A DNA stretch of 64,000 nt from Escherichia phage ECp13, in the sequence record PP274704.1; one strand, written 5' to 3'. Below are positions 1 through 28,080 of this stretch, one piece after another (positions within the stretch are counted from its first letter, which is position 1; the number at the start of each line of letters is the position of its first letter). The notes under the pieces were generated by a model, which had not been told where the DNA came from, did not search any database, and worked only from the letters and a program-made list of their open reading frames with translations. The translations under genes and the position numbers were made by a program.

Positions 1-1
1 T

Positions 2-8983: not shown

Positions 8984-10662
8984 AGAATTTTAAACTAAAC
9001 CGAGTTAGGTATCAAAATATAATGTCAGTAGGTGGAAATCCTATTGACATTCAACTAGATAAGGTTCAAAAAACTCTTATTACTGGACGAAATGGCGGTG
9101 GTAAGTCTACTATGTTAGAAGCCATCACATTTGGGCTTTTTGGCAAGCCATTCCGTGATGTAAAGAAAGGCCAATTAATAAACAGCACAAATAAGAAAGA
9201 ACTTTTAGTTGAACTGTGGATGGAATATGATGAGAAAAAGTACTATATCAAAAGAGGACAAAAACCAAATGTTTTCGAAATCACCGTTAACGGTACACGT
9301 CTTAATGAATCTGCCAGCAGTAAAGATTTCCAAGCAGAATTTGAACAGCTTATCGGAATGTCATATGCCAGTTTCAAGCAGATTGTTGTCCTTGGTACAG
9401 CAGGGTATACCCCTTTCATGGGTTTGTCGACCCCTGCACGAAGAAAGCTTGTGGAAGACCTGCTCGAGGTAGGAACATTAGCTGAAATGGATAAGCTTAA
9501 TAAAGCACTAATACGTGAATTAAATTCACAAAACCAAGTGCTTGATGTTAAAAAAGATAGTATTATCCAACAAATTAAAATATATAATGATAACGTTGAA
9601 CGCCAGAAAAAATTAACTGGTGATAACCTTACTCGTCTACAGAATATGTATGATGATTTGGCAAAAGAAGCCAGAACGTTAAAATCGGAAATAGAAGAAG
9701 CTAATGAAAGATTAGTTAATATTGTTTTGGATGAAGACCCGACTGATGCATTTAATAAAATCGGTCAAGAAGCATTTTTAATTAAATCAAAAATTGACTC
9801 GTATAATAAAGTCATTAATATGTATCACGAAGGTGGATTATGTCCAACCTGTTTGTCACAATTAAGTTCCGGTGATAAAGTTGTTTCTAAAATTAAAGAT
9901 AAAGTTTCTGAATGCACGCATTCGTTTGAACAGCTTTCAACACATCGTGATAATTTAAAAGTTCTCGTTGATGAATACCGAGATAATATTAAAACCCAAC
10001 AGACGTTGGCAAATGATATTCGCAATAAAAAGCAATCTCTAATCACGACTGTAGATAAAGCTAAAAAAGTTAAAGCAGCTATAGAAAAAGCATCATCTGA
10101 GTTTATTGACCATGCTGATGAAATAGCACTGCTTCAAGAAGAACTTGATAAAATTGTTAAGACAAAAACTAATTTAGTAATGGAAAAATACCACAGAGGA
10201 ATTTTGACTGATATGCTCAAAGATTCTGGTATTAAAGGTGCTATTATTAAAAAGTACATTCCATTATTTAATAAGCAGATTAACCATTATCTTAAAATAA
10301 TGGAAGCGGATTATGTGTTTACATTAGATGAAGAATTTAATGAGACAATTAAATCCCGCGGTCGTGAAGATTTTAGTTATGCTTCATTTAGTCAAGGCGA
10401 AAAAGCACGAATTGATATTGCTCTTTTATTTACTTGGCGTGATATTGCTGAAAAAGTTTCAGGTGTTAAAATAAACACATTAATTCTTGACGAAGTTTTT
10501 GATTCAGCAACTGATGTTGAAGGTGTAAAAGCTATTTCAACTATTTTAGATAGTTTAAAAAATACTAATGTTTTTGTTATTTCGCATAGAGACCATGATC
10601 CACAAGCATACGGTCAGCATCTTCAAATGAAGAAAGTTGGTCGATTTACTGTAATGGTTTAA
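8980..10662 (+). CDS. 46: Recombination ATPase gp46 (Rad50/SbcC-like), GTG start
   Basis: 560 aa; Walker A GRNGGGKST; zinc-hook CPTC within long coiled coil. Confidence 0.9.
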   Translation: MKNFKLNRVRYQNIMSVGGNPIDIQLDKVQKTLITGRNGGGKSTMLEAITFGLFGKPFRDVKKGQLINSTNKKELLVELWMEYDEKKYYIKRGQKPNVFEITVNGTRLNESASSKDFQAEFEQLIGMSYASFKQIVVLGTAGYTPFMGLSTPARRKLVEDLLEVGTLAEMDKLNKALIRELNSQNQVLDVKKDSIIQQIKIYNDNVERQKKLTGDNLTRLQNMYDDLAKEARTLKSEIEEANERLVNIVLDEDPTDAFNKIGQEAFLIKSKIDSYNKVINMYHEGGLCPTCLSQLSSGDKVVSKIKDKVSECTHSFEQLSTHRDNLKVLVDEYRDNIKTQQTLANDIRNKKQSLITTVDKAKKVKAAIEKASSEFIDHADEIALLQEELDKIVKTKTNLVMEKYHRGILTDMLKDSGIKGAIIKKYIPLFNKQINHYLKIMEADYVFTLDEEFNETIKSRGREDFSYASFSQGEKARIDIALLFTWRDIAEKVSGVKINTLILDEVFDSATDVEGVKAISTILDSLKNTNVFVISHRDHDPQAYGQHLQMKKVGRFTVMV

Positions 10663-10669
10663 TTTATAA

Positions 10670-10700
10670 GAGATTATGCTTTAATTTATTAGAGTATAAT
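10670..10700 (+). promoter_or_regulatory. Middle promoter: MotA box TGCTTTA, 11 nt, TATAAT
   Basis: attaTGCTTTAatttattagagTATAAT. Confidence 0.5.
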
Positions 10701-10717
10701 CTCTATGGAGGAAAAAC

Positions 10718-10906
10718 ATGGAATATTCAACTGGACAGCATCTATTAACTATTCCTGAAATAAAACGATATATTCTGAGAAATAATTTTTCTAATGAAGA
10801 GCATATAGTTACTGAATCTATGCTTAAGAATGCATTTAAAGCAGAATATACGAAAATAATGTCCAACAGAAATGAAGCTTGGACTGTTACTGATTATTAT
10901 GACTAA
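10718..10906 (+). CDS. Hypothetical protein (62 aa)
   Basis: ORF with GGAGGAAAAAC SD. Confidence 0.5.
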   Translation: MEYSTGQHLLTIPEIKRYILRNNFSNEEHIVTESMLKNAFKAEYTKIMSNRNEAWTVTDYYD

Positions 10907-10915
10907 AGGTGTATT

Positions 10916-11305
10916 ATGACTAAAATTACTGTGAATTATACTGTTGATGTAAAAGATATTCAGCCAAAACACGTGCGTTCTGAATCAAATCCACAAAACC
11001 AAAATAAAATTCGTCGAGCATGGGTTTTGTCTCTTTCTGATAACGCGATGGAAGTTATTCAGAGCAAAATTAAATCTGCACCTGCTCGTCATGCGTATTA
11101 TGAAGCTATCGATCGTGAAGTAAGCAATAAATGGATTGAACTAATGCGCAAACATACGGCAGAATCTCTAAATGCTGGTGCTAAATTTATTATGACTTCA
11201 TGTGGTGAACGCCTTGAAGACGATTATTGTGGTAATGCAGATGAACGTCTAATTGTTGCTGCTCAAATTGTTGCAGAAACAATTGCTGCCGATTTTAATC
11301 GTTAA
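10916..11305 (+). CDS. rpbA: RNA polymerase-binding protein RpbA (probable)
   Basis: 129 aa ORF between 46 and 45, same length and position as T4 rpbA. Confidence 0.6.
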
Positions 11306-11330
11306 TTGCTTTATTAAATTAGTTATAAAA
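11304..11330 (+). promoter_or_regulatory. Probable middle promoter upstream of gene 45 (MotA-box-like TGCTTTA plus TATAAA)
   Basis: aatTGCTTTAttaaattagtTATAAA. Confidence 0.4.
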
Positions 11331-11360
11331 TTAAATCTCATTTGAATTGAAGGAAATTAC

Positions 11361-12047
11361 ATGAAACTGTCTAAAGATACTACTGCTCTGCTTAAAAATT
11401 TCGCTACTATTAACTCTGGTATTATGCTTAAATCTGGTCAATTTATTATGACTCGCGCAGTTAATGGTACAACTTATGCGGAAGCAAATATTTCTGACAC
11501 TATTGATTTTGATGTAGCGATTTACGATTTGAACGGTTTTCTCGGTATTCTGTCTCTAGTTAATGATGATGCAGAAATTTCCCAGTCAGAAGATGGTAAT
11601 ATTAAAATTGCTGATGCCCGTTCAACAATTTTTTGGCCAGCAGCCGATCCGAGTACAGTAGTTGCTCCTAATAAACCAATTCCATTCCCGGTAGCATCTG
11701 TTGTTACCGAAATTAAAGCTGAAGACCTTCAACAGCTGTTGCGTGTATCTCGCGGTCTGCAGATTGATACAATTGCTATCACAGTAAAAGAAGGTAAAAT
11801 CGTAATTAACGGTTTTAATAAAGTAGAAGATTCTGCTTTGACTCGTGTTAAATATTCTTTGACTCTTGGTGATTATGATGGTGAAAATACATTTAATTTC
11901 ATTATCAATATGGCAAATATGAAAATGCAACCAGGAAATTATAAACTTCTGCTCTGGGCAAAAGGTAAACAGGGTGCTGCTAAATTTGAAGGTGAACACG
12001 CGAATTATGTAGTAGCTCTTGAAGCTGATTCTACCCACGACTTTTAA
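11361..12047 (+). CDS. 45: Sliding clamp gp45
   Basis: 228 aa; position and length as T4 gp45. Confidence 0.85.
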   Translation: MKLSKDTTALLKNFATINSGIMLKSGQFIMTRAVNGTTYAEANISDTIDFDVAIYDLNGFLGILSLVNDDAEISQSEDGNIKIADARSTIFWPAADPSTVVAPNKPIPFPVASVVTEIKAEDLQQLLRVSRGLQIDTIAITVKEGKIVINGFNKVEDSALTRVKYSLTLGDYDGENTFNFIINMANMKMQPGNYKLLLWAKGKQGAAKFEGEHANYVVALEADSTHDF

Positions 12048-12048
12048 T

Positions 12049-12068
12049 AAAGGGCTTCGGCCCTTAAA
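12049..12068 (+). terminator. Hairpin GGGC-UUCG-GCCC after gene 45
   Basis: aaagggcttcggccctt. Confidence 0.5.
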
Positions 12069-12096
12069 TTTACACTAAAACTTGAATGAGGAAATT

Positions 12097-13056
12097 ATGA
12101 TTACTGTAAATGAAAAAGAACACATTCTTGAACAGAAATATCGTCCATCTACTATCGATGAATGTATTCTTCCCGCCTTTGATAAAGAAACCTTTAAATC
12201 TATTACAAGTAAAGGTAAAATTCCACATATTATTCTTCATTCTCCTTCTCCAGGAACAGGTAAAACAACTGTAGCAAAAGCATTGTGTCATGATGTAAAT
12301 GCTGATATGATGTTTGTGAATGGATCAGATTGTAAAATTGATTTCGTTCGTGGTCCTTTGACTAATTTTGCTAGTGCAGCTTCATTTGATGGTCGTCAAA
12401 AAGTAATCGTTATTGATGAATTTGACCGTTCAGGGTTAGCAGAGTCTCAGCGACATCTTCGTTCCTTTATGGAAGCTTATAGTTCAAACTGTAGTATTAT
12501 TATTACTGCTAACAATATTGATGGTATTATTAAACCGCTTCAGTCACGCTGCCGAGTTATTACATTCGGTCAACCGACCGATGAAGATAAAATTGAAATG
12601 ATGAAGCAGATGATTCGTCGATTGACTGAAATCTGCAAGCATGAAGGAATTGCTATAGCTGATATGAAAGTTGTAGCAGCTTTGGTTAAAAAGAATTTTC
12701 CTGATTTTCGTAAAACTATTGGTGAGCTCGATAGTTATTCATCTAAAGGTGTTTTGGATGCTGGTATTTTATCACTGGTTACTAACGATCGTGGTGCTAT
12801 TGATGATGTTCTTGAGTCTCTCAAAAATAAAGATGTTAAACAGCTCAGAGCTTTAGCACCAAAATATGCAGCTGATTATTCGTGGTTCGTAGGTAAACTT
12901 GCCGAAGAAATCTATACACGTGTAACTCCGCAAAGTATTATTCGTATGTATGAAATTGTTGGTGAAAATAACCAGTATCATGGAATTGCGGCTAATACGG
13001 AATTACATTTAGCATATCTTTTCATTCAATTAGCATGCGAAATGCAGTGGAAGTGA
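12097..13056 (+). CDS. 44: Clamp loader large subunit gp44 (AAA+)
   Basis: 319 aa from ATG 12097 (MITVNEKEH...); Walker A GTGKTT; SRC motif QSRCRV; ORF track start 12082 is TTG. Confidence 0.9.
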
Positions 13057-13057
13057 T

Positions 13058-13621
13058 ATGAGCTTATTTGAAGATGATATTCAATTAAACGAGCATCAAG
13101 TTGCTTGGTATTCAAAAGATTGGACAGCTGTCCAATCTGCTGCTGATTCTTTTAAGGAAAAAGCTGAAAATGAATTTTTTGAAATAATTGGAGCTATTAA
13201 TAATAAAACTAAATGCTCTATTGCTCAAAAAGATTATTCAAAATACATGGTTGAGAATGCATTATCACAATTTCCTGAATGCATGCCAGCTGTATATGCT
13301 ATGAATTTAATTGGATCAGGTTTAAGCGATGAAGCCCATTTTAATTATCTGATGGCTGCTGTTCCTCGTGGTAAAAGATATAGTAAATGGGCAAAACTGG
13401 TTGAAGATTCTACCGAAGTATTGATTATTAAGTTACTTGCTAAGCGGTATCAAGTTAATACAAATGATGCAATTAACTATAAATCAATTCTTACTAAAAA
13501 TGGAAAACTACCTTTAGTATTAAAAGAACTAAAAGGTTTAGTCACGGATGATTTTTTGAAAGAAGTGACTAAGAACGTAAAAGAACAGAAACAACTCAAA
13601 AAACTAGCATTGGAATGGTAA
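13058..13621 (+). CDS. 62: Clamp loader small subunit gp62
   Basis: 187 aa immediately after gp44. Confidence 0.85.
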
Positions 13622-13622
13622 A

Positions 13623-13991
13623 ATGATTGAAATTACTCTTAAAAAACCTGAAGATTTTCTGAAAGTAAAAGAAACTTTGACTCGTATGGGAATTGCTAAT
13701 AATAAAGATAAAGTTCTGTATCAGTCCTGCCACATTCTTCAGAAAAAAGGACTATACTATATCGTCCATTTTAAAGAAATGCTTCGTATGGATGGTCGCC
13801 AGGTTGAAATGACAGAAGAAGATGAAGTTCGCCGTGATTCGATTGCGTGGCTGTTAGAAGATTGGGGGCTGATTGAAATCGTTCCTGGTCAAAGAACTTT
13901 TATGAAAGATTTAACTAATAACTTCCGAGTTATTTCTTTTAAACAAAAACACGAATGGAAACTCGTTCCTAAATATACGATTGGTAATTAA
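13623..13991 (+). CDS. regA: Translational repressor RegA
   Basis: 122 aa between 62 and 43. Confidence 0.85.
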   Translation: MIEITLKKPEDFLKVKETLTRMGIANNKDKVLYQSCHILQKKGLYYIVHFKEMLRMDGRQVEMTEEDEVRRDSIAWLLEDWGLIEIVPGQRTFMKDLTNNFRVISFKQKHEWKLVPKYTIGN

Positions 13992-13993
13992 GC

Positions 13994-14016
13994 AAGGGGC
14001 TTCGGCCCCTTATTTG
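13994..14016 (+). terminator. Hairpin GGGGC-UUCG-GCCCC plus U-rich tail
   Basis: aaggggcttcggccccttattt. Confidence 0.6.
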
Positions 14017-14029
14017 GAGTATAATATAT

Positions 14030-14069
14030 CAAGAGCCTAATAACTCGGGCTATAAACTAAGGAATATCT
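14030..14069 (+). promoter_or_regulatory. Possible gene 43 translational operator (hairpin plus SD region)
   Basis: AGCC-taataactcg-GGCT hairpin 20 nt upstream of AAGGAA SD; gp43 autoregulation is known in T4. Confidence 0.4.
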
Positions 14070-16766
14070 ATGAAAGAATTTTATATCTCTATCGAAACAG
14101 TCGGAAATAACATTGTTGAGCGTTATATTGATGAAAATGGAAAGGAACGTACTCGTGAAGTAGAATATCTTCCGACTATGTTTAGGCATTGTAAGGAAGA
14201 GTCAAAATACAAAGACATTTATGGTAAAAATTGTGCTCCTCAAAAATTTCCATCAATGAAAGATGCACGAGACTGGATGAAGCGAATGGAAGACATCGGT
14301 CTCGAAGCTCTTGGTATGAACGATTTTAAACTCGCTTATATCAGTGATACATATGGTTCAGAAATTGTTTATGACCGAAAATTTGTTCGTGTAGCTAACT
14401 GTGACATTGAGGTTACTGGCGATAAATTTCCTGACCCAATGAAAGCAGAATATGAAATTGATGCTATCACTCATTACGATTCAATTGACGACCGTTTTTA
14501 CGTCTTTGATTTGTTGAATTCAATGTACGGTTCAGTATCAAAATGGGATGCAAAGTTAGCTGCTAAGCTTGACTGTGAAGGTGGTGATGAAGTTCCTCAA
14601 GAAATTCTTGACCGAGTAATTTATATGCCATTCGATAATGAGCGTGATATGCTCATGGAATATATTAATCTCTGGGAACAGAAACGACCTGCTATTTTTA
14701 CCGGTTGGAATATTGAGGGATTTGACGTTCCGTATATTATGAATCGCGTTAAAATGGTTCTCGGTGAACGCAGTATGAAACGCTTCTCTCCAATCGGTCG
14801 AGTAAAATCTAAACTAATTCAAAATATGTACGGTAGCAAAGAAATTTATTCTATTGATGGCGTATCTATTCTTGATTATTTAGATTTGTACAAGAAATTC
14901 GCATTTACTAATTTGCCATCGTTCTCTTTGGAATCAGTTGCTCAACATGAAACCAAAAAAGGTAAATTGCCGTACGATGGTCCTATTAATAAACTTCGTG
15001 AAACTAATCATCAACGATACATTAGTTATAACATCATTGACGTAGAATCAGTTCAAGCAATTGATAAAATTCGTGGGTTTATCGATCTAGTTTTAAGTAT
15101 GTCTTATTACGCTAAAATGCCTTTTTCTGGTGTAATGAGTCCTATTAAAACTTGGGATGCTATTATTTTTAACTCACTGAAAGGTGAACATAAGGTTATT
15201 CCTCAACAAGGTTCGCACGTTAAACAGAGTTTTCCAGGTGCATTTGTGTTTGAACCTAAACCGATTGCTCGTCGATACATTATGAGTTTTGACTTGACGT
15301 CTCTGTATCCTAGCATTATTCGTCAGGTTAACATTAGTCCTGAGACTATTCGCGGGCAGTTTAAAGTTCATCCAATTCATGAATATATCGCAGGAACAGC
15401 TCCTAAGCCAAGTGATGAATATTCTTGCTCTCCGAATGGATGGATGTATGATAAGCACCAAGAAGGTATCATTCCAAAGGAAATCGCTAAAGTATTTTTC
15501 CAGCGTAAAGATTGGAAAAAGAAAATGTTCGCGGAAGAAATGAATGCCGAAGCTATTAAAAAGATTATTATGAAAGGTGCAGGGTCTTGCTCAACTAAAC
15601 CAGAAGTTGAACGATATGTTAAGTTCAGTGATGATTTCTTAAACGAATTATCGAATTACACCGAATCTGTTCTTAATAGTCTGATCGAAGAATGTGAAAA
15701 AGCAGCTACACTTGCTAACACAAATCAGCTGAACCGTAAAATTCTTATTAACAGTCTTTATGGTGCTCTTGGTAATATTCATTTCCGTTACTATGATTTG
15801 CGAAATGCTACTGCTATCACAATTTTCGGTCAAGTCGGTATTCAGTGGATTGCTCGCAAAATTAATGAATATCTGAATAAAGTATGTGGAACTAATGGTG
15901 AAGATTTCATCGCAGCAGGTGATACTGATTCGGTATATGTTTGTGTAGATAAAGTTATTGAAAAAGTAGGTCTTGATCGCTTTAAAGAACAAAATGATTT
16001 AGTTGAATTCATGAATCAGTTTGGTAAGAAAAAGATGGAACCTATGATTGATGTTGCATATCGTGAGTTATGTGATTATATGAATAACCGCGAGCATCTG
16101 ATGCATATGGACCGTGAAGCTATTTCTTGCCCTCCGCTTGGTTCAAAGGGTGTTGGTGGATTTTGGAAAGCGAAAAAACGTTATGCTCTGAACGTTTATG
16201 ATATGGAAGATAAGCGATTTGCCGAACCGCATCTAAAAATCATGGGTATGGAAACTCAGCAGAGCTCAACACCAAAAGCAGTACAAGAAGCTCTCGAAGA
16301 AAGTATTCGTCGTATTCTTCAGGAAGGCGAAGAGTCTGTCCAAGAATACTACAAGAACTTTGAGAAAGAATATCGTCAACTTGACTATAAAGTTATTGCT
16401 GAAGTAAAAACTGCGAACGATATAGCGAAATATGATGATAAAGGTTGGCCAGGATTTAAATGCCCGTTCCATATTCGTGGCGTACTAACTTATCGTCGAG
16501 CTGTTAGCGGTTTAGGTGTAGCTCCAATTTTGGATGGAAATAAGGTAATGGTTCTTCCATTACGTGAAGGAAATCCATTTGGTGATAAGTGCATTGCTTG
16601 GCCATCAGGCACAGAACTTCCAAAAGAAATTCGTTCTGACGTACTGTCTTGGATTGACTACTCAACTTTGTTCCAAAAATCGTTTGTTAAACCGCTTGCG
16701 GGTATGTGTGAATCGGCAGGTATGGACTATGAGGAAAAAGCTTCGTTAGACTTCCTGTTTGGCTGA
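14070..16766 (+). CDS. 43: DNA polymerase gp43 (family B)
   Basis: 898 aa; motifs DLTSLYPS and AAGDTDSVY; 3'-5' exo domain. Confidence 0.95.
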   Translation: MKEFYISIETVGNNIVERYIDENGKERTREVEYLPTMFRHCKEESKYKDIYGKNCAPQKFPSMKDARDWMKRMEDIGLEALGMNDFKLAYISDTYGSEIVYDRKFVRVANCDIEVTGDKFPDPMKAEYEIDAITHYDSIDDRFYVFDLLNSMYGSVSKWDAKLAAKLDCEGGDEVPQEILDRVIYMPFDNERDMLMEYINLWEQKRPAIFTGWNIEGFDVPYIMNRVKMVLGERSMKRFSPIGRVKSKLIQNMYGSKEIYSIDGVSILDYLDLYKKFAFTNLPSFSLESVAQHETKKGKLPYDGPINKLRETNHQRYISYNIIDVESVQAIDKIRGFIDLVLSMSYYAKMPFSGVMSPIKTWDAIIFNSLKGEHKVIPQQGSHVKQSFPGAFVFEPKPIARRYIMSFDLTSLYPSIIRQVNISPETIRGQFKVHPIHEYIAGTAPKPSDEYSCSPNGWMYDKHQEGIIPKEIAKVFFQRKDWKKKMFAEEMNAEAIKKIIMKGAGSCSTKPEVERYVKFSDDFLNELSNYTESVLNSLIEECEKAATLANTNQLNRKILINSLYGALGNIHFRYYDLRNATAITIFGQVGIQWIARKINEYLNKVCGTNGEDFIAAGDTDSVYVCVDKVIEKVGLDRFKEQNDLVEFMNQFGKKKMEPMIDVAYRELCDYMNNREHLMHMDREAISCPPLGSKGVGGFWKAKKRYALNVYDMEDKRFAEPHLKIMGMETQQSSTPKAVQEALEESIRRILQEGEESVQEYYKNFEKEYRQLDYKVIAEVKTANDIAKYDDKGWPGFKCPFHIRGVLTYRRAVSGLGVAPILDGNKVMVLPLREGNPFGDKCIAWPSGTELPKEIRSDVLSWIDYSTLFQKSFVKPLAGMCESAGMDYEEKASLDFLFG

Positions 16767-16777
16767 TAGAAAAAATC

Positions 16778-16802
16778 TAGGGACCTCCGGGTCCCTTTTT
16801 CA
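16778..16802 (+). terminator. Intrinsic terminator GGGACC-UCCG-GGUCCC plus T5
   Basis: tagggacctccgggtcccttttt. Confidence 0.65.
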
Positions 16803-16869
16803 TACAAGTAATATAAATCTATACTTAGGAAAAATAGATGATTCTAGGTCCTGTAAATTCATTAAAAAT

Positions 16870-16915
16870 TTTTTCACAAAACTGTTTACAAGACTGTTCC
16901 TCTGTGGTACTATTA
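16870..16915 (+). promoter_or_regulatory. Early promoter (GTTTAC, 18 nt, TACTAT); near-identical copy at 43590-43632
   Basis: aaactGTTTACaagactgttcctctgtggTACTATtac. Confidence 0.55.
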
Positions 16916-16947
16916 CTCTATCAACCAATACAAATTTGGAGAATGAA

Positions 16948-17328
16948 ATGAAAATTGCTATTTTGGTTATTGCATTGGGTCTTACTGGTTGTGTAGCTCA
17001 AGGACCAGTAGTAAATCAGTCTGATGCAGGAAAAATTGTAAACTGTTCAAGCAAATTTTATAATCCTAACGTCAAGTGTTATAAAGAAGCTCCAAAACAG
17101 ACAGTAGAACAAATGCAGGCGAATTTTGACGAAGCTATTCGTCCAGATGAATCTGCTCAAGCATATCGTAATTCAGATGTAATTACACGCGAAGAAAAAA
17201 TTGAAAACTACTGCGCCGAACTTTGGGCTAATTGGGCTAATAATTACCAATGGCGAACTGGTAAAAATGCTCCAATGGAGTATGTAGTGAATTCTTATAA
17301 TTCATGTGTAAAAAATTTGACTAAGTGA
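16948..17328 (+). CDS. Putative lipoprotein (126 aa)
   Basis: Signal peptide with lipobox LTGC; ORF track N-terminal extension 16759.. runs through the promoter and is rejected. Confidence 0.6.
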   Translation: MKIAILVIALGLTGCVAQGPVVNQSDAGKIVNCSSKFYNPNVKCYKEAPKQTVEQMQANFDEAIRPDESAQAYRNSDVITREEKIENYCAELWANWANNYQWRTGKNAPMEYVVNSYNSCVKNLTK

Positions 17329-17335
17329 GGAAAAG

Positions 17336-17587
17336 ATGGAAACTTTAGTAGCAGGTTCAATTTTTATGGTTTTAGTTTCATGCGTGTTGGCTATTATTAT
17401 ATACATGCTTCCATGGTTCATCGCCTTGATGCGCGGGTCAAAATCGACAGTAGGAATCTTTTTCACATCTTTACTGTTTAACTGGTCAATTATTGGTTGG
17501 TTTATTACATTTATTTGGTCAATTGCGGGTGAAACTAAAAAATCTGTGCAGCAAAATCAAGTAATTATCATCAGAGAGAAGGAATGA
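17336..17587 (+). CDS. imm: Superinfection immunity protein Imm
   Basis: 83 aa two-helix membrane protein between 43 and 42. Confidence 0.8.
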   Translation: METLVAGSIFMVLVSCVLAIIIYMLPWFIALMRGSKSTVGIFFTSLLFNWSIIGWFITFIWSIAGETKKSVQQNQVIIIREKE

Positions 17588-17733
17588 AAAGCAAAATTTT
17601 AACAGTATTGCTTTTAATCTTGATGATTATAATAAGTATATACTATAGCGTAACGGTTCCTTGTATGATTCCAACGCTTATTATAGGGTGGAGTTTATTA
17701 CTGTTACAAGTTAAATATGAATGTATCAATTGA
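17584..17733 (+). CDS. Hypothetical hydrophobic peptide (49 aa)
   Basis: ATGA overlap with imm stop; fills gap before gene 42. Confidence 0.35.
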   Translation: MKSKILTVLLLILMIIISIYYSVTVPCMIPTLIIGWSLLLLQVKYECIN

Positions 17734-17740
17734 GGTTTAA

Positions 17741-18481
17741 ATGATTAATGACTCTTTGACAGTTGAAGAAACTCGTCTTCATTTGGGAATTGCGTTAAAG
17801 GAAAAAGATTTCGTAATTGATAAAACTGGCGTTAAAACTATTGAAATTATTGGCGCATCATTTGTAGCAGATGAACCGTTTATTTTTGGCGCTCTTAATG
17901 ATGAATACATTCAGCGTGAACTTGAATGGTATAAATCTAAAAGTTTGTTTGTTAAAGATATTCCGGGTGAAACACCGAAGATTTGGCAACAGGTAGCATC
18001 TTCTAAAGGCGAAATTAACTCGAATTATGGTTGGGCCATCTGGTCAGAAGATAACTATGCCCAGTATGATATGTGTTTAGCTGAACTTGGTCAAAATCCT
18101 GATTCTCGACGTGGTATCATGATTTATACTCGTCCATCCATGCAGTTTGACTACAATAAAGATGGTATGTCAGATTTCATGTGTACGAATACAGTACAGT
18201 ACCTGATTCGTGATAAGAAAGTCAATGCAGTAGTAAGCATGCGTTCAAATGACGTGGTCTTCGGATTCCGTAATGATTATGCATGGCAAAAATACGTACT
18301 AGATAAATTAGTATCTGATTTGAATGCAGGTGATTCAACTCGTCAGTATAAAGCAGGTTCCATTATATGGAATGTCGGGAGCCTTCATGTGTATTCCCGT
18401 CATTTTTATTTGGTTGACCATTGGTGGAAAACTGGCGAAACTCATATTGCGAAAAAAGATTATAACGGTGAGTGGAAATGA
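17741..18481 (+). CDS. 42: dCMP hydroxymethylase gp42
   Basis: 246 aa; thymidylate-synthase-like; position next to imm. Confidence 0.85.
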   Translation: MINDSLTVEETRLHLGIALKEKDFVIDKTGVKTIEIIGASFVADEPFIFGALNDEYIQRELEWYKSKSLFVKDIPGETPKIWQQVASSKGEINSNYGWAIWSEDNYAQYDMCLAELGQNPDSRRGIMIYTRPSMQFDYNKDGMSDFMCTNTVQYLIRDKKVNAVVSMRSNDVVFGFRNDYAWQKYVLDKLVSDLNAGDSTRQYKAGSIIWNVGSLHVYSRHFYLVDHWWKTGETHIAKKDYNGEWK

Positions 18482-19320
18482 TTCAATTCGTAATTCCAAG
18501 CTATCAACGCGTAGGGGCAGTTTCTGCCCTTGATATGTTTCCGACTGATTATGAACCTCATATTGTAGTACGTGAACACGAAGAAAAAGCTTATTATGAC
18601 GCTTACGGGTCTAGAGCTAAAATTATAACTATTCCTGATGATGTTAATGGAATTGCTGGTACTCGTAAAGCAATTACTGATATGTATGCAGGTCAACGAA
18701 TTTGGATGATTGATGATGATACTACTATTCGTATGAGTTCAATGCGAAAGAAAGATGATCGTCGCTGCGTAGATAAAATTAATCAGTTAACTCGTGAACA
18801 GTTCTATGAATTGATTCAATACGTTGAAGATGCCATGGATTGCGGGTATTATCACGGTCATGCTCGTCTACCTATTTTTAAAATTACTTCATCTTGGGGT
18901 AATTATCGTGAAAATTCATATGGATTCACGAATACTTGGTATGACCTCGGGAAACTTACAACAGAACAAATTGGGTATGGAAAAATTGATTTATGCGAAG
19001 ATATGTATGCATTTCTCAATTTAATTAATCAAGGTTATCCGCATTTGGCCTTGTTCAAATATCTGGTTGTGTCTGGAAAAGCACAGGCTCCTGGCGGATG
19101 TAGTTCAATTCGTAGTAATTCAAAACATAATAGAGCTCTTGAGCAAATCAATAGAGAGTTTCCAGAGCAAGCTCGTTGGAAAACATCGAATATCGAAAAG
19201 AGAAAATCGTTGGGTGAAGAAGACGAGCCATTAAAAGTTCTTCGCATGTGTGTTTCGCGCAAAGAAAAATCAGAAGCATTTCATAAGTTTAATGCTATTC
19301 ATCCAATAGCAGTTGATTAA
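18478..19320 (+). CDS. Putative DNA glycosyltransferase at the bgt locus (possibly T2/T6-type beta-glucosyl-HMC-alpha-glucosyltransferase)
   Basis: 280 aa from ATG 18478 (ATGA overlap with gene 42); DxD-like WMIDDDTTI; unlike the 351 aa T4 beta-gt as I recall it. Confidence 0.45.
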   Translation: MIQFVIPSYQRVGAVSALDMFPTDYEPHIVVREHEEKAYYDAYGSRAKIITIPDDVNGIAGTRKAITDMYAGQRIWMIDDDTTIRMSSMRKKDDRRCVDKINQLTREQFYELIQYVEDAMDCGYYHGHARLPIFKITSSWGNYRENSYGFTNTWYDLGKLTTEQIGYGKIDLCEDMYAFLNLINQGYPHLALFKYLVVSGKAQAPGGCSSIRSNSKHNRALEQINREFPEQARWKTSNIEKRKSLGEEDEPLKVLRMCVSRKEKSEAFHKFNAIHPIAVD

Positions 19321-19397
19321 TGCCTAAATTTATTGTGTTATAATTACTCTATCTTTAACCAGTGAGGAAAATATAATGTTGCCTATGGAAAAAATGA

Positions 19398-20579
19398 ATG
19401 TCTATTGCAGATTTAAAATCCCGTTTGATTAAAGCTTCCACTTCTAAAATGACTGCTGAACTGACTACATCTAAATTCTTTAATGAAAAGGATGTAATCC
19501 GTACAAAAATTCCAATGCTTAATATCGCTATTTCTGGTGCGATTGATGGTGGTATGCAGTCTGGTTTAACCATTTTTGCAGGTCCTTCTAAACACTTTAA
19601 ATCAAATATGTCTTTGACTATGGTTGCGGCGTATTTGAACAAATATCCTGACGCGGTATGTCTATTCTATGATAGCGAATTTGGTATTACTCCAGCTTAT
19701 TTGCGATCCATGGGAGTTGACCCGGAACGAGTAATTCATACACCAATCCAGTCAGTTGAACAGCTGAAAATTGATATGGTGAATCAGCTTGAAGCTATTG
19801 AGCGTGGTGAAAAAGTTATTGTATTCATCGACTCAATTGGTAATATGGCTTCTAAGAAAGAAACGGAAGATGCCTTGAATGAAAAATCTGTGGCAGATAT
19901 GACTCGTGCTAAATCACTGAAGTCATTATTCCGTATTGTTACTCCTTATTTTAGTATTAAAAACATTCCATGCGTTGCGGTTAACCATACAATTGAAACA
20001 ATTGAAATGTTTAGTAAAACCGTGATGACAGGTGGTACAGGCGTAATGTATTCGGCTGATACCGTATTCATTATCGGTAAGCGCCAGATTAAAGATGGTT
20101 CTGATCTTCAGGGGTATCAATTTGTTCTAAATGTAGAAAAATCTCGTACCGTTAAAGAAAAAAGTAAATTCTTTATTGATGTTAAATTTGACGGTGGTAT
20201 CGATCCTTATTCTGGATTGTTAGATATGGCTCTTGAATTAGGATTTGTGGTAAAACCTAAAAATGGCTGGTATGCTCGTGAATTTCTTGACGAAGAAACC
20301 GGCGAGATGATTCGCGAAGAAAAATCTTGGCGTGCAAAAGATACCAACTGCACTACATTCTGGGGTCCTTTATTTAAGCATCAGCCATTCCGAGACGCTA
20401 TTAAACGTGCTTATCAGTTAGGTGCTATTGATAGTAATGAAATTGTTGAAGCTGAAGTTGATGAATTGATTAACTCAAAGGTTGAAAAATTTAAATCTCC
20501 AGAAAGTAAAAGTAAATCAGCAGCTGATTTAGAAACTGACCTAGATCAGTTAAGTGATATGGAAGAATTTAATGAATAA
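19398..20579 (+). CDS. uvsX: Recombinase UvsX (RecA-like)
   Basis: 393 aa; Walker A GPSKHFKS; close match to remembered T4 UvsX. Confidence 0.9.
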   Translation: MSIADLKSRLIKASTSKMTAELTTSKFFNEKDVIRTKIPMLNIAISGAIDGGMQSGLTIFAGPSKHFKSNMSLTMVAAYLNKYPDAVCLFYDSEFGITPAYLRSMGVDPERVIHTPIQSVEQLKIDMVNQLEAIERGEKVIVFIDSIGNMASKKETEDALNEKSVADMTRAKSLKSLFRIVTPYFSIKNIPCVAVNHTIETIEMFSKTVMTGGTGVMYSADTVFIIGKRQIKDGSDLQGYQFVLNVEKSRTVKEKSKFFIDVKFDGGIDPYSGLLDMALELGFVVKPKNGWYAREFLDEETGEMIREEKSWRAKDTNCTTFWGPLFKHQPFRDAIKRAYQLGAIDSNEIVEAEVDELINSKVEKFKSPESKSKSAADLETDLDQLSDMEEFNE

Positions 20580-20916
20580 AGATGATTTAGATTTAGATCT
20601 AGAAATTATCGATGAATCCCCCTCTTCGGAGGGGGAAGAAGAAAGAAAAGAACGTCTTTTTAATGAATCTCTTAAGATAATTAAATCTGCCATGGAAAAT
20701 GTTATCCAGGAGATTGTTATTAAACTAGAAGACGGTTCTACACACATTGTGTATGTGACAAAATTAGATTGGGTTGATGGAAAAGTCGTAATGGACTTTG
20801 CTGTTCTTGACCAAGAAAGAAAAGCTGAGTTAGCTCCTCATGTAGAAAAATGTATTACAATGCAACTACAAGATGCATTTAATAAAAGGTCAAAGAAAAA
20901 ATTTAAATTCTTTTAA
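20572..20916 (+). CDS. 40: gp40-like head assembly protein (assigned by position)
   Basis: 114 aa from ATG 20572 overlapping uvsX stop; between uvsX and 41. Confidence 0.5.
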   Translation: MNKDDLDLDLEIIDESPSSEGEEERKERLFNESLKIIKSAMENVIQEIVIKLEDGSTHIVYVTKLDWVDGKVVMDFAVLDQERKAELAPHVEKCITMQLQDAFNKRSKKKFKFF

Positions 20917-20925
20917 GGAGTAAGT

Positions 20926-22353
20926 GTGGTAGAAATTATTCTTTCTCATCTCATATTTGATCAAGCTTATTTTTCAAAAGTTTGGCCATATATGGATTCA
21001 GAATATTTTGAAAGTGGTCCAGCTAAAAATACATTCAAATTAATTAAATCTCATGTTAATGAGTACCATAGCGTTCCATCTATTAATGCGTTAAATGTTG
21101 CATTAGAAAATAGTTCATTTACTGAAACAGAATATTCTGGTGTAAAAACACTTATTTCGAAACTAGCCGATTCTCCAGAAGACCACAGCTGGTTAGTAAA
21201 AGAAACAGAAAAATATGTTCAGCAAAGGGCGATGTTTAATGCTACGTCTAAAATAATTGAAATTCAAACCAATGCTGAGCTTCCTCCGGAAAAACGAAAT
21301 AAGAAAATGCCGGATGTTGGTGCTATTCCTGACATTATGCGCCAAGCATTATCAATTTCATTTGATAGCTACGTTGGTCATGATTGGATGGATGACTACG
21401 AAGCACGTTGGCTATCTTATATGAATAAAGCTCGTAAGGTTCCATTTAAACTCAAAATTCTAAATAAAATTACTAAAGGCGGAGCTGAAACTGGAACACT
21501 AAACGTTTTAATGGCTGGTGTTAACGTTGGTAAGTCATTAGGTCTGTGTTCATTGGCAGCAGATTATTTACAGCTCGGTCATAATGTTCTTTACATTTCA
21601 ATGGAAATGGCAGAAGAAGTCTGTGCTAAGCGTATTGACGCTAATATGCTTGATGTTTCTCTTGATGACATTGATGACGGGCATATTTCTTACGCTGAGT
21701 ATAAAGGAAAAATGGAAAAATGGCGTGAGAAATCTACTCTCGGCCGTTTAATCGTTAAGCAATATCCTACTGGTGGAGCAGACGCTAACACATTTCGATC
21801 GCTTTTAAACGAATTGAAGCTCAAGAAGAATTTTGTTCCAACAATCATTATTGTTGACTATCTGGGTATTTGTAAATCTTGCCGCATTAGAGTTTATTCA
21901 GAAAATAGTTACACAACTGTTAAAGCTATCGCAGAGGAATTGCGTGCTCTGGCTGTTGAAACTGAAACTGTTCTTTGGACTGCAGCACAGGTTGGTAAAC
22001 AAGCTTGGGATTCTTCTGATGTTAACATGAGCGATATCGCAGAATCTGCCGGTCTTCCAGCAACAGCCGATTTTATGCTTGCGGTCATTGAAACCGAGGA
22101 GTTAGCAGCTGCTGAACAACAACTCATTAAGCAAATCAAATCACGATATGGTGATAAGAATAAATGGAATAAGTTTTTGATGGGTGTTCAAAAAGGAAAT
22201 CAGAAATGGGTAGAAATTGAACAAGATTCTACTCCAACTGAAGTGAACGAAGTAGCAGGTTCACAGCAGATTCAGGCTGAACAGAATCGCTATCAAAGAA
22301 ACGAATCTGCTCGAGCTCAGTTAGATGCTTTGGCAAATGAATTAAAATTTTAG
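20926..22353 (+). CDS. 41: Replicative helicase gp41 (DnaB-like), GTG start
   Basis: 475 aa; Walker A GVNVGKS; N-terminus VEIILSHLIFDQAYF. Confidence 0.9.
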   Translation: MVEIILSHLIFDQAYFSKVWPYMDSEYFESGPAKNTFKLIKSHVNEYHSVPSINALNVALENSSFTETEYSGVKTLISKLADSPEDHSWLVKETEKYVQQRAMFNATSKIIEIQTNAELPPEKRNKKMPDVGAIPDIMRQALSISFDSYVGHDWMDDYEARWLSYMNKARKVPFKLKILNKITKGGAETGTLNVLMAGVNVGKSLGLCSLAADYLQLGHNVLYISMEMAEEVCAKRIDANMLDVSLDDIDDGHISYAEYKGKMEKWREKSTLGRLIVKQYPTGGADANTFRSLLNELKLKKNFVPTIIIVDYLGICKSCRIRVYSENSYTTVKAIAEELRALAVETETVLWTAAQVGKQAWDSSDVNMSDIAESAGLPATADFMLAVIETEELAAAEQQLIKQIKSRYGDKNKWNKFLMGVQKGNQKWVEIEQDSTPTEVNEVAGSQQIQAEQNRYQRNESARAQLDALANELKF

Positions 22354-22383
22354 TTTACAAGCTGACAAGACTATGGTATAGTA
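22345..22383 (+). promoter_or_regulatory. Early promoter (GTTTAC, 18 nt, TATAGT)
   Basis: tagtttacaagctgacaagactatggtatagt upstream of dmd. Confidence 0.5.
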
Positions 22384-22411
22384 GTCTTGTTGGTTAAATG
22401 AGGAGATTGTT

Positions 22412-22594
22412 ATGGAATTGGTAAAGGTAGTTTTTATGGGGTGGTTTAAGAACGAAAGCATATTTGCTAAAGAAATCACAATGATGAAAGATGACGTTCA
22501 ATGGGCTACTACTCAATATGCTGAAGTTAATAAAGCGCTAGTTAAAGCTTTCATTGATGACAAGAAAGTATGTGAAGTGGATTGCCGAGGATAA
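22412..22594 (+). CDS. dmd: Dmd antitoxin (inhibitor of host RnlA/LsoA RNases)
   Basis: 60 aa; sequence agrees with remembered T4 Dmd; first gene after 41. Confidence 0.7.
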   Translation: MELVKVVFMGWFKNESIFAKEITMMKDDVQWATTQYAEVNKALVKAFIDDKKVCEVDCRG

Positions 22595-22595
22595 T

Positions 22596-22853
22596 ATGCA
22601 TATTGTTTTATTTAAACCTACTCCGTATAATGTCAGGAAAAATACTCAATTCAAAGCACTTATTGCAGATACGTGGGAATTAGTATTAGATATTCCAGCA
22701 GAAGAAAGTCCTCCATTTGGTCGAGTGGAATTTATTAAGTTTGCTGTGCGCCCTACGAAGCGACAGATTCGTCAATGCAAAAGATACTTTCGTAAAATCG
22801 TCAAGTTAGAGAAACAGTTTGTAACATGTGATTATACAGAAGTTTTAAAATAA
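22596..22853 (+). CDS. Hypothetical protein (85 aa from ATG)
   Basis: ORF track 22554..22853; first ATG after dmd stop at 22596. Confidence 0.5.
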   Translation: MHIVLFKPTPYNVRKNTQFKALIADTWELVLDIPAEESPPFGRVEFIKFAVRPTKRQIRQCKRYFRKIVKLEKQFVTCDYTEVLK

Positions 22854-22911
22854 TTGTTTACTTTTATTGGAAATTGAGATACTATAAACATAAACTACTG
22901 AGGAGATTATC

Positions 22912-23205
22912 ATGAAAAAATTTATCTTTGCTGCAATTTTTGCTTTATCTTCTTGCGCTGCTCAGCCTGCTATGGCGGGTTATGACAAAGATTTGTGTGA
23001 ATGGTCTATGACTGCAGATCAGACTGAAGTTGAAACTCAAATTGAAGCGGATATTATGAATATCGTTGAGCGTGATCATCCTGAAATGAAAGCTGAAGTG
23101 CAAAAACAACTTAAGTCTGGTGGTGTAATGCAGTATAATTACGTTCTGTATTGCGATAAAAACTTTAATAATAAAAATATCATCGCTGAAGTGGTAGGTG
23201 AGTAA
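22912..23205 (+). CDS. sp: Periplasmic protein Spackle (probable)
   Basis: 97 aa with N-terminal signal peptide; position between 41 and 61. Confidence 0.6.
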   Translation: MKKFIFAAIFALSSCAAQPAMAGYDKDLCEWSMTADQTEVETQIEADIMNIVERDHPEMKAEVQKQLKSGGVMQYNYVLYCDKNFNNKNIIAEVVGE

Positions 23206-23217
23206 TTAGAGGTTAGT

Positions 23218-23574
23218 ATGTACAGTTCTGAATTTTCATATTTAAAAATGGAAAAAATTTCATACGATTTCATAGATGAAAAGATTTATTACAGCTTCCA
23301 TGAACCGCGTTTTAATAGTGAGGTTGGGTTTATTGTAGTAAAAGACAATTTCATTTTAAAGATATATTCGGCATTAAAGGATTTTCATTACGAAAATATT
23401 AACCTAAAATTTGATAAAGAAAACGTTCGTAATTGTGCAGTAACAATTACAGGAAATAAAGGTACATGTGTTATGCTATCTGATGAAATTAATGATTTGT
23501 TAAATGATGTAGAAAAGGTTGCTATTCCATCTATTGATGACCAAATTTTTAATGCTTTTATGAATAGAGGTTAA
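23218..23574 (+). CDS. Hypothetical protein (118 aa)
   Basis: ORF track. Confidence 0.55.
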   Translation: MYSSEFSYLKMEKISYDFIDEKIYYSFHEPRFNSEVGFIVVKDNFILKIYSALKDFHYENINLKFDKENVRNCAVTITGNKGTCVMLSDEINDLLNDVEKVAIPSIDDQIFNAFMNRG

Positions 23575-23575
23575 T

Positions 23576-23740
23576 ATGAAAACATATAAAGAATTTATTA
23601 AAGAAGATATGGTAGCTGGAGATTCAGGTGGTAATCCTGAAAATATCTCCACTGGAACAACGTCAGGTGCTGTAGTAAATAAAGGTCCTGAACAGATTCC
23701 TAAAAAGAAAAAAGAGGAATCTAAAGAAAAAGAAGAGTAA
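23576..23740 (+). CDS. Hypothetical protein (54 aa), lysine/glutamate-rich tail
   Basis: ATG ORF exactly filling the gap before gene 61. Confidence 0.4.
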   Translation: MKTYKEFIKEDMVAGDSGGNPENISTGTTSGAVVNKGPEQIPKKKKEESKEKEE

Positions 23741-23742
23741 AA

Positions 23743-24771
23743 ATGTCATCAATACCTTGGATTGATAATGAGTTTGCATACCGTGCATTAGCTCATTTAC
23801 CTAAATTCACACAAGTAAATAATAGTTCAACTTTTAAATTGCGGTTTAGATGCCCTGTTTGTGGAGATTCAAAAACCGACCAAAATAAAGCCCGTGGATG
23901 GTATTATGGTGATAATAATGAAGGAAATATTCATTGTTATAACTGCAACTATCATGCACCAATCGGAATATATTTAAAGGAGTTTGAACCTGATTTATAT
24001 CGTGAGTATATCTTTGAAATAAGAAAAGAAAAAGGTAAAAGTCGTCCAGTAGAAAAACCTAAAGAACTTCCTAAACAACCTGAGAAGAAAATAATTAAAT
24101 CTCTTCCGTCATGCATTAGATTAGATAAACTGGCGGAAGACCATCCAATTATAAAATATGTAAAAGCTCGTTGTATTCCAAAGAATAAATGGAAATATCT
24201 TTGGTTTACAACCGAATGGCCTAAATTAGTTAATAGTATAGCGCCAGGAACATATAAAAAGGAAATACCTGAGCCTCGTCTTGTTATTCCAATTTATAAT
24301 GCTAACGGAAAAGCTGAGTCTTTTCAAGGACGTGCATTAAAGAAAGATGCTCCTCAAAAATATATCACCATCAAAGCTTATCCTGAGGCAACAAAAATTT
24401 ATGGAGTTGAACGGGTTAAAGATGGTGATGTATATGTTCTAGAAGGACCTATAGATTCACTTTTTATTGAAAATGGTATAGCTATTACGGGCGGTCAATT
24501 AGACCTAGAAATTGTTCCATTTAAAGATAGACGTGTATGGGTTTTAGATAATGAACCTCGTCATCCTGACACTATTAAACGAATGACTAAATTGGTCGAT
24601 GCAGGAGAAAGGGTTATGTTTTGGGACAAATCTCCCTGGAAATCAAAAGATGTTAATGATATGATTAGAAAGGAAGGTGCAACCCCTAAACAAATTATGG
24701 AATATATGAAAAATAATATTGCCCAAGGGTTGATGGCTAAAATGCGGCTATCTAAATATGCTAAGATTTAA
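23743..24771 (+). CDS. 61: DNA primase gp61
   Basis: 342 aa; Zn ribbon CPVCGDS...CYNC; TOPRIM domain. Confidence 0.9.
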   Translation: MSSIPWIDNEFAYRALAHLPKFTQVNNSSTFKLRFRCPVCGDSKTDQNKARGWYYGDNNEGNIHCYNCNYHAPIGIYLKEFEPDLYREYIFEIRKEKGKSRPVEKPKELPKQPEKKIIKSLPSCIRLDKLAEDHPIIKYVKARCIPKNKWKYLWFTTEWPKLVNSIAPGTYKKEIPEPRLVIPIYNANGKAESFQGRALKKDAPQKYITIKAYPEATKIYGVERVKDGDVYVLEGPIDSLFIENGIAITGGQLDLEIVPFKDRRVWVLDNEPRHPDTIKRMTKLVDAGERVMFWDKSPWKSKDVNDMIRKEGATPKQIMEYMKNNIAQGLMAKMRLSKYAKI

Positions 24772-24968
24772 ATTAACCCAACTAAAGCAAATGCTAAATC
24801 TACGAATGTATCAAGAGTAATTACTGGAATATTAACGCCATGAGCAATAGCAATTGGCGATAAAACAAAATTCCAGAGTAAAATTCCTACCATAGCAGAA
24901 ATAGTAAAAGCTATACGTTTTTTATTACCTTTTATGGCATTAACAAGTGCCATTAATTTTTGTACCAT
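24768..24968 (-). CDS. Hypothetical two-helix membrane protein (66 aa) on the opposite strand
   Basis: Minus-strand ATG preceded by AAGGAGG; convergent with gene 61. Confidence 0.5.
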   Translation of the reverse strand: MVQKLMALVNAIKGNKKRIAFTISAMVGILLWNFVLSPIAIAHGVNIPVITLDTFVDLAFALVGLI

Positions 24969-24977
24969 ATGTCCTCC

Positions 24978-25006
24978 TTATTGCTTTATATATTTATTGT
25001 ATAATT
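24978..25006 (+). promoter_or_regulatory. Middle promoter: MotA box TGCTTTA, 11 nt, TATAAT
   Basis: ttaTTGCTTTAtatatttattgTATAAT upstream of gene 56. Confidence 0.5.
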
Positions 25007-25039
25007 AATCTACTAACCCATGAATTGAAAGGAAAAATA

Positions 25040-25557
25040 ATGGCTTACTTTAATGAATGTAGTCAACTGATTGAAGGCGCTGATAAAGCTCAAAATGAAT
25101 ACTGGGATATTCTCGGCGATGAAAAAGACCCGCTGCAGGTTATGCTTGATATGCAGAAATCTCTGCAGGTTCGTTTAGCTAAAGATAAACCTGAATATAA
25201 CCGTCATCCTGATGATTTGGCTACTGCAGGTGAAGTTGTTGATTGGCTGCGTAATCAGAAAGATTATATTGATGATGAATTCCGCGAACTTCTGACTTCT
25301 CTTGGTGGTATGAGCAATGGCGAAAAAGATGCATCTGCTGTATGGAAGCTTGGAAGTCGCAACACGGTGAACGTCGTGAAACTCTGATTACTGACTTATC
25401 TCCACAAGACCAGTTGGAAATTAAATTCGAAATGATTGATATTCTTCATTTCGTTCTGAACATGTTCCAAGGTCTCGGTCTTACGGCTGAAGAAATCTTT
25501 AAACTTTATTATCTGAAAAATGCTGAAAACTTCGCTCGTCAAGACCGAGGTTATTAA
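25040..25557 (+). pseudogene. 56: dCTPase/dUTPase gp56, interrupted by apparent 1-nt deletion near 25346-25350
   Basis: Frame A ends ...ASAVWK then runs to a stop at 25387; frame B resumes (E)AWKSQ...ARQDRGY; the two pieces sum to ~172 aa, the intact length. Confidence 0.6.
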
Positions 25558-25591
25558 TATAAACGACGGCTTAAAAGCTGTGAGAATTTAT

Positions 25592-25599
25592 TATAAATA
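25592..25599 (+). promoter_or_regulatory. Late promoter TATAAATA
   Basis: ttaTTATAAATAgtc about 30 nt upstream of soc. Confidence 0.55.
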
Positions 25600-25629
25600 G
25601 TCATGTAATTTAAATAAAAGGAGAATTAC

Positions 25630-25875
25630 ATGGCTAGTACTCGCGGTTATGTTAATATTAAAACATTTGAGCAGAAATTAGATGGAAATAAGAAAATTGA
25701 AGGAAAGGAAATTTCTGTAGCTTTCCCTCTTTATTCTGACGTTCACAAAATTTCTGGTGCTCATTACCAGACATTCCCTTCAGAAAAAGCAGCATATACT
25801 ACTGTATACGAAGAAAATCAACGTGATGCATGGATTGCTGCAAACGAAGATCTGTGGAAAGTAACTGGTGGTTAA
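25630..25875 (+). CDS. soc: Small outer capsid protein Soc
   Basis: 81 aa; MASTRGYVNIKTFEQKLDGNKKIEGKEISVAFPLY matches remembered T4 Soc. Confidence 0.85.
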   Translation: MASTRGYVNIKTFEQKLDGNKKIEGKEISVAFPLYSDVHKISGAHYQTFPSEKAAYTTVYEENQRDAWIAANEDLWKVTGG

Positions 25876-25882
25876 TAAATTC

Positions 25883-25910
25883 AAGGACTCCTTCGGGAGT
25901 CCTTTTTTCA
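25883..25910 (+). terminator. Intrinsic terminator GGACUCC-UUCG-GGAGUCC plus T6
   Basis: aaggactccttcgggagtcctttttt. Confidence 0.7.
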
Positions 25911-25974
25911 TTTTACCGGTTTACTTTCCAAAACAAGTATGGTATAATAAAATTATCTTATAGAGGAGAGCACT

Positions 25975-26187
25975 ATGTTAAATCGTTGGATTAAACCAAA
26001 TGAAGACCTCCAGAAGGTTCTTGATAAAGCTATCTCTGATAAATGGGGTATGAAAAGCTGGGATTGTGATATCGTCACGCATTCATTCATGATGCATGCA
26101 GATGGTTCAGTCGAGTTCAATGCTGAAATGCGATACACTGACTGGGGTGGATTTCAAAGAGTCGAATTTCAAAGAGGCTTTTTGTAA
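25975..26187 (+). CDS. Hypothetical protein (70 aa)
   Basis: ORF track; GAGGAGAG SD. Confidence 0.5.
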   Translation: MLNRWIKPNEDLQKVLDKAISDKWGMKSWDCDIVTHSFMMHADGSVEFNAEMRYTDWGGFQRVEFQRGFL

Positions 26188-26307
26188 TGTTTATCTTTAA
26201 TTGGTTTAAAAGTTTCTTTACGGATTTTTTTCTCTACAACTCCCGGAGAAGGTGTAGTTCCTATTTCAAATGACTACCTTCCTTTAACTGTAGTTGAATA
26301 TGTTTAT

Positions 26308-26526
26308 ATGGGAGATGGAACAGTAGAAGCGGTTACTATGACTTATGAAGAAGCCCAGGAATATTATAAAAATCCTTGGCGCTGGTCAACACCTACATCA
26401 TCTAATGCGCAGAATACACAGTCTAGTTCTGATTCATATGACACTAATGTTCCTGTTCATGTATGGACGGGCGATTCATGTGGAAGTTCTTGTGATTCTA
26501 GTTGTTCATCTACATCTTGTGATTGA
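26308..26526 (+). CDS. Hypothetical protein (72 aa), Ser/Cys-rich C-terminus
   Basis: ORF track; tail [18 protein letters not shown]. Confidence 0.45.
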
Positions 26527-26534
26527 GGAAAATT

Positions 26535-27020
26535 ATGGAAGCGATTTTGTTTGAAATGTATATTAGCAGTAATAGTTTGTCGTTTGCTAAAGACGTTCCA
26601 ATTACCGTAGCAGTAATGATTGATAAGGGTTATTGTGACCCAATGTATCTTGTAGAAAATTTCGTTTCAATGCCAGTTCCAGAAGATGCTGAAATAAAAC
26701 TTAAAAAGATTGGTATTATTGAAACTGTACCAAATATTCCATTTAGAGCAATTGAAGCATTTACTAAATCAGAATACATTAATGTTAGCGCAGAACAATA
26801 TAATGATAATCCTTTATCTTTCTATTCGTATGATTCAGTATATAGTTGGAAAATAGATAAAGGAAATAAATTTATAATTGCGAGTGAAGATGCTTTATCA
26901 TACTTTATTTCTTCTGTATGGAATAGTTTACATCCAAATTTGCTAAAAATTCATGAATTTGATGATGCTCCTACTGTTATTTTAGGTAAAACAAATGAAA
27001 GTTCTGAAGAAGATGCTTGA
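26535..27020 (+). CDS. Hypothetical protein (161 aa), possibly Mrh by length and position
   Basis: ATG 26535 with GAGGAAAA SD; ORF track start 26523 is TTG. Confidence 0.45.
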
Positions 27021-27198
27021 ATGGTTCAATAGACCAAACTCAATGTATATTGACGATGGTTGGGTTGAACAAGCAAATAAAGAAATGCAGAACGAATCGG
27101 AAGAATGGATGAAATCAATGATTAGTGCTGAGAAAGAAAAGAAATTAGAACGCTCAGCACTTAAATTAATGAGAGACATCTATGGGGATAAATCGTGA
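26995..27198 (+). CDS. Hypothetical protein (67 aa)
   Basis: ORF track. Confidence 0.45.
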
Positions 27199-27206
27199 AC
27201 AAAGAT

Positions 27207-27359
27207 ATGACATTAGAAGAGGCTAAAGCTAAAGCAAACGAAGCACTGGATTTGCTTCTTAAAATCGGTAGTAAAATGATGGAAGAAAATGAGAAATATA
27301 TCCAGGAAAACAAAATTCCTGACGGCCCATTAGTAGGCAAGAGGAAATCACATGATTGA
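27207..27359 (+). CDS. Hypothetical protein (50 aa)
   Basis: ATG ORF bridging the gap between flanking ORFs; below track cut-off. Confidence 0.3.
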
Positions 27360-27822: not shown

Positions 27823-27830
27823 GAATTAAT

Positions 27831-28056: not shown

Positions 28057-28080
28057 CTTCTGAAGTATATGGAGGCTATC

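Follow-up and report, generated by a model that had tools for sequence, protein, structure and literature searches.

An open reading frame (ORF) located at 18478..19320 (+) in the window, the 64,000 nt stretch of Escherichia phage ECp13 DNA that was analysed, very probably encodes the secondary DNA glucosyltransferase of T2/T6 type, called ba-gt or ggt (glucosyl-DNA beta-glucosyltransferase). The original prediction had placed a 280 aa ORF with the motif WMIDDDTTI between gene 42 and uvsX. This ORF is real: its product (MIQFVIPSYQ...AIHPIAVD) is read from an ATG in the ORF listing of the window, and the motif corresponds to residues 76–84 (nt 18703..18729). The protein is 100% identical to that of phage ime09 (AEK12306.1). 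Alignment with the T2/T6 beta-glucosyl-HMC-alpha-glucosyltransferase, a check proposed together with the prediction, was gapless over the 280 aa and gave 98.6% identity to the T2 protein (four differences: R11H, K92R, I101V and P251S) and 97.9% to the T6 protein of record MH550421 (five amino acid differences, plus one stop codon in that record). These four to five substitutions, the only differences from the T2/T6 enzyme, are conservative and none is of functional note. At the DNA level, the mean column identity with the T2 and T6 genes was 98%. We take EC 2.4.1.28 to be the number of this enzyme.

Family, locus and distribution of ba-gt

A profile search, also suggested at the outset, gave a match to Pfam PF20691 (TAGT, TET-associated glycosyltransferase) of 38.8 bits, for a gathering cutoff of 27.5 (E 1.2e-9). 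The match spans the whole profile, residues 3–207 of the protein being aligned on profile positions 2–205 of 205. PHROG 842 (phrog_842), which bears the name of the enzyme, matched at E 5.6e-89, whereas neither ba-gt nor alpha-gt is covered by an NCBIfam model. Unlike the TET-associated members of PF20691, ECp13 ba-gt has no TET/JBP dioxygenase partner; its partners are a dCMP hydroxymethylase of thymidylate synthase type and a primary transferase of GT-B type.

The gene order imm - 42 - ba-gt - uvsX - 40 - 41 is common to the ECp13 window, T2 and T6, whereas the same slot is filled in T4 by b-gt and segA. The downstream flank is defined by uvsX (19398..20579, +), a 393 aa ORF in the same synteny as in ime09, T2 and T6. 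Length, locus, DDD motif and the partner alpha-gt are thus the same in ECp13 as in T2 and T6. A megablast comparison with 50,697 phage records found ba-gt in 479 of them, nearly all at 90% nucleotide identity or more. The carriers are mostly Tequatrovirus phages of Escherichia, Shigella and Yersinia, and many of the genes are annotated as beta-glucosyl-HMC-alpha-glucosyltransferase. Therefore, ba-gt is the usual occupant of the gene 42–uvsX slot in T4-like coliphages, and the b-gt of T4 is the exception.

The frame of ba-gt is already open from a GTG at 18472 (ORF 18472..19320, +). The GTG was not retained as the start, and the ATG at 18478 was preferred, because all close homologs start with MIQFVIPSY; this choice agrees with the T2 annotation and with the conserved N-terminus. 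The TGA of gene 42 and the ATG of ba-gt overlap as ATGA, exactly as in T2. A scan for promoters and terminators near ba-gt returned counts no higher than those of shuffled controls, and we propose no promoter of its own for the gene. Most simply, ba-gt would be co-transcribed or translationally coupled with gene 42.

The ORF is not a T4-type beta-glucosyltransferase

That the product does not resemble T4 beta-gt, as the first reading of the sequence had it, was borne out: homology was rejected on a best BLASTP E value of 3.4 and the lack of any match to PF09198. Nor was beta-gt found elsewhere, tblastn with T4 b-gt yielding nothing at E<0.1 in the 64,000 nt window or in the complete ime09 genome. 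The two enzymes share the genomic slot downstream of gene 42 and, according to the published account, both use UDP-glucose and create a beta linkage on phage DNA. They differ in fold class (predicted GT-A for ba-gt, GT-B for T4 b-gt, PF09198) and in acceptor, which is the 6-OH of alpha-glucosyl-hmC for ba-gt and the hydroxymethyl group of hmC for T4 b-gt.

Predicted fold and candidate catalytic residues

Fold prediction, the remaining computational check that had been proposed, gave a model of moderate confidence with a GT-A, Rossmann-like fold and the conserved DxD motif; pLDDT was below 50 at residues 126–151 and 192–211. The model superposes on GT-A glycosyltransferases, mostly of GT2 type. 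Sequence identity to such enzymes (TarP 6h1j, TarS, chondroitin polymerase K4CP, BcsA) is 9–15%. In contrast to these four, ba-gt has no membrane or polymerising domains, and it acts on a sugar carried by duplex DNA. No solved relative turned up when the PDB was searched by sequence; the matches lay at E>0.7 and were spurious, arising from His-tags.

M77 and D79–D81 do not vary among nine homologs that share as little as 32% identity. The DxD-type motif D79-D80-D81 (18712..18720, +) follows strand E74–78 in the model, which is the usual GT-A position, and by analogy with GT-A enzymology it is the probable binding site for the metal and for the diphosphate of UDP-glucose. A second acidic pair, E174-D175, lies in the sequence CEDMY (18997..19002, +). 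D175 is invariant among the nine homologs and, by analogy with the “ED” motif of GT2 enzymes, would be a candidate catalytic base.

Partner genes and proposed pathway

The alpha-gt that the original prediction had placed at 6138..7340 (+) was confirmed. This DNA alpha-glucosyltransferase, which makes the ba-gt acceptor alpha-glucosyl-hmC, is 400 aa long (phrog_2888, E 1e-221) and is 98.8% identical to its T2 counterpart, 90.8% to that of T6 and 90.5% to that of T4. Gene 42 (17741..18481, +), encoding the dCMP hydroxymethylase that supplies hm-dCMP, is 246 aa long, 95.1% identical to T4 gp42, and matches the thymidylate synthase family. Both genes are intact in the window. Thus ba-gt co-occurs with the gene for its acceptor and with that for hmC, and with gene 56, which is present and apparently frameshifted. 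Since alpha-gt is present and beta-gt was found neither in the window nor in ime09, the glucosylation gene set is of T2/T6 type, a primary alpha-glucosyltransferase plus a secondary beta-alpha-glucosyltransferase. The orthology of ba-gt likewise supports the T2/T6-style modification initially proposed.

In the pathway we propose, gp42 would make hm-dCMP and gp56 would remove dCTP, so that phage DNA would be built with hmC. The alpha-gt product would then add alpha-glucose to hmC in duplex DNA, and ba-gt, as an inverting enzyme, would use UDP-glucose to place a second glucose on the 6-OH of the alpha-glucose. The expected product is beta-1,6-glucosyl-alpha-glucosyl-hmC (gentiobiosyl-hmC). This scheme draws on the present analysis for the orthology, synteny, family and fold class of ba-gt and for the finding of alpha-gt but no beta-gt, and on the literature for the product of ba-gt and its effect on host defences.

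Apparent frameshifts and other features of the window

Gene 56 (25040..25557, +), coding for the dCTPase/dUTPase that keeps dCTP from phage DNA, was recovered in two frames by tblastn. Loss of one C near 25348 splits it into ORFs 25040..25387 and 25342..25557. Alignments with ime09 and pSs-1 located the deletion: GGAAG-CTTGG in the window corresponds to GGAAGCCTTGG in phage pSs-1, the rest being identical over 91 compared bases. None of 362 matching phage records has the deletion. Because T4 cannot make cytosine-free DNA without gp56, the most likely cause is a sequencing error. A genuine frameshift would compromise the hmC pathway that lies upstream of ba-gt.

Two further single-nucleotide differences from ime09 were seen. 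In rIIA (38896..41060, +), one base is missing near 40287 (AAC-TTC, versus AACATTC in ime09), residues 4–467 being read in frame 1 and residues 468–725 in frame 3; this is probably a sequencing or assembly error, or an r-type mutation. The other lies near 32283, in a 122 aa ORF, and may be an error of ime09.

The gap between imm and gene 42 is filled by a very hydrophobic 49 aa ORF (MKSKILTVLLLILMIIISIYYSV...) at 17584..17733 (+), with an ATG that overlaps the stop codon of imm. T4, T2 and T6 all keep this frame open and encode a conserved peptide, and it is annotated in none of those records; in ime09, a 1 nt insertion lies near the 3' end of the ORF. Overall, the window (1..64000) is colinear with ime09 at 94–98% identity; on ime09 the match starts at about 42.6 kb, descends through rIIA, crosses the ends of the record and reaches back to about 142.8 kb. 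The similarity is interrupted at about 50.4–54.3 kb of the window, in the region of the distal tail fibre genes 37/38, which suggests that the receptor-binding module differs from that of ime09.

Inspection of the T6 records revealed lesions in ba-gt itself. In MH550421 (7138..7980, −, of the examined stretch), codon 10 is TAG and the annotated CDS starts only at M20 (261 aa). In NC_054907/AP018814 (926..1765, +, of the examined stretch), Q10 is kept and the DDD motif has lost one Asp codon (WMIDDTTI, 279 aa). The lesions may be stock-specific mutations or sequencing errors, and they are odd in that T6 is the phage that defines high gentiobiosylation.

Discussion

The activity of ba-gt has been established in T6 by deletion genetics (PMC11078745, PMC13160076), and in natural relatives by LC-MS (PMC13390438). 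The enzyme makes 5% gentiobiosyl-hmC in T2 and 72% in T6 (PMC6024577, PMC11078745, PMC13160076). All ten natural Tequatrovirus phages with an alpha-GT and a TAGT syntenic to T4 beta-GT were shown by LC-MS to contain gentiobiosyl-hmC, with hmC:glucosyl:gentiobiosyl ratios of about 1:2:2 in three of the ten and about 1:0:2, that is about two-thirds gentiobiosyl, in the other seven (PMC13390438). According to a survey preprint, the combination of two primary glycosyltransferases, in the style of T4, is rare, and a primary plus a secondary one is common. The gene, its product and its consequence for defence are therefore already documented, its annotation is routine in GenBank, and the ECp13 gene adds no new biology.

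The ECp13 allele is presumably active. Its mere presence does not fix the level of gentiobiosylation, because the T2 gene is almost identical and yet yields only about 5% gentiobiosyl-hmC; neither activity nor the ratio of mono- to di-glucosyl forms is predictable from sequence. The ba-gt genes of T2 and T6 are themselves nearly identical, yet the ratios in the two phages differ widely. It is accordingly quite conceivable, if not the outcome we expect, that ba-gt is as described here and ECp13 nevertheless behaves like T2, with a few % gentiobiosyl-hmC, mostly alpha-monoglucosyl-hmC, and a sensitivity to defences close to that of an alpha-glucosyl-hmC phage. The alpha-gt is of T2 type (98.8% identity, versus 90.8% with T6), ba-gt is slightly nearer to that of T2 (four differences) than to that of T6 (five and a stop), and T2 itself, while carrying ba-gt, has 70% alpha-glucosyl and 5% gentiobiosyl-hmC (PMC13160076, PMC11078745). 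However, the natural Tequatrovirus phages with alpha-gt and TAGT had substantial gentiobiosyl-hmC by LC-MS (PMC13390438), and the closeness of ECp13 to T2 may be irrelevant to this level. Such an outcome concerns the phenotype and not the identity of the gene, and it overlaps with the assignment as T2/T6-type ba-gt.

It is very unlikely that the ECp13 ba-gt allele together with a T2-type alpha-gt results in an unusual ratio of mono- to di-glucosyl forms, or that a genuine gene 56 frameshift makes ECp13 a natural T-even phage with partial cytosine. If true, an unusual ratio could help explain the gap between T2 (5%) and T6 (72%), which is long known and unexplained.

A different specificity of ba-gt, as a primary transferase on hmC, with a sugar other than glucose, or accepting beta-glucosyl-hmC as well, is highly improbable. 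PF20691 was defined as TET-associated and not as glucose-specific, and in other phages its homologs also occur with beta-GT or with no recognisable primary glycosyltransferase, which suggests acceptor diversity (bioRxiv 10.64898/2025.12.06.692756). In contrast, the ECp13 protein is 97.9–98.6% identical to the genetically characterised T2/T6 enzymes, and it is accompanied by alpha-gt, with no beta-gt detected in the window or in ime09. Equally hard to credit is an inactive or unexpressed ba-gt: the lesions in two T6 GenBank records imply that the gene tolerates damage in laboratory stocks, and the window has other apparent frameshifts, but the ORF is full length, encodes the same protein as ime09, keeps every residue invariant among the homologs, and appears to be coupled in translation to gene 42, which is essential.

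The T2/T6-type assignment bears on which host defences can attack the phage, as had been anticipated from the sequence. This consequence is already published for Brig1 and BapA on the basis of T6 genetics (PMC11078745, PMC13160076). T6 deprived of ba-gt is left with alpha-glucosyl-hmC only, and the mutant is more sensitive to Brig1; wild-type T6 DNA resists this glycosylase in vitro (PMC11078745). BapA is unable to take glucose off T6 DNA (PMC13160076). Brig1 excises alpha-glucosyl-hmC and does not degrade the gentiobiosyl-rich T6 DNA in vitro, the glucose of gentiobiosyl-hmC is not stripped by BapA, and all glucosylated forms are cut by GmrSD-type enzymes. Since the type of sugar on hmC determines which host defences are able to attack a T-even phage, knowing whether a genome carries alpha-gt with ba-gt, or alpha-gt with beta-gt, is useful for the prediction of host range and for the choice of therapeutic phages.
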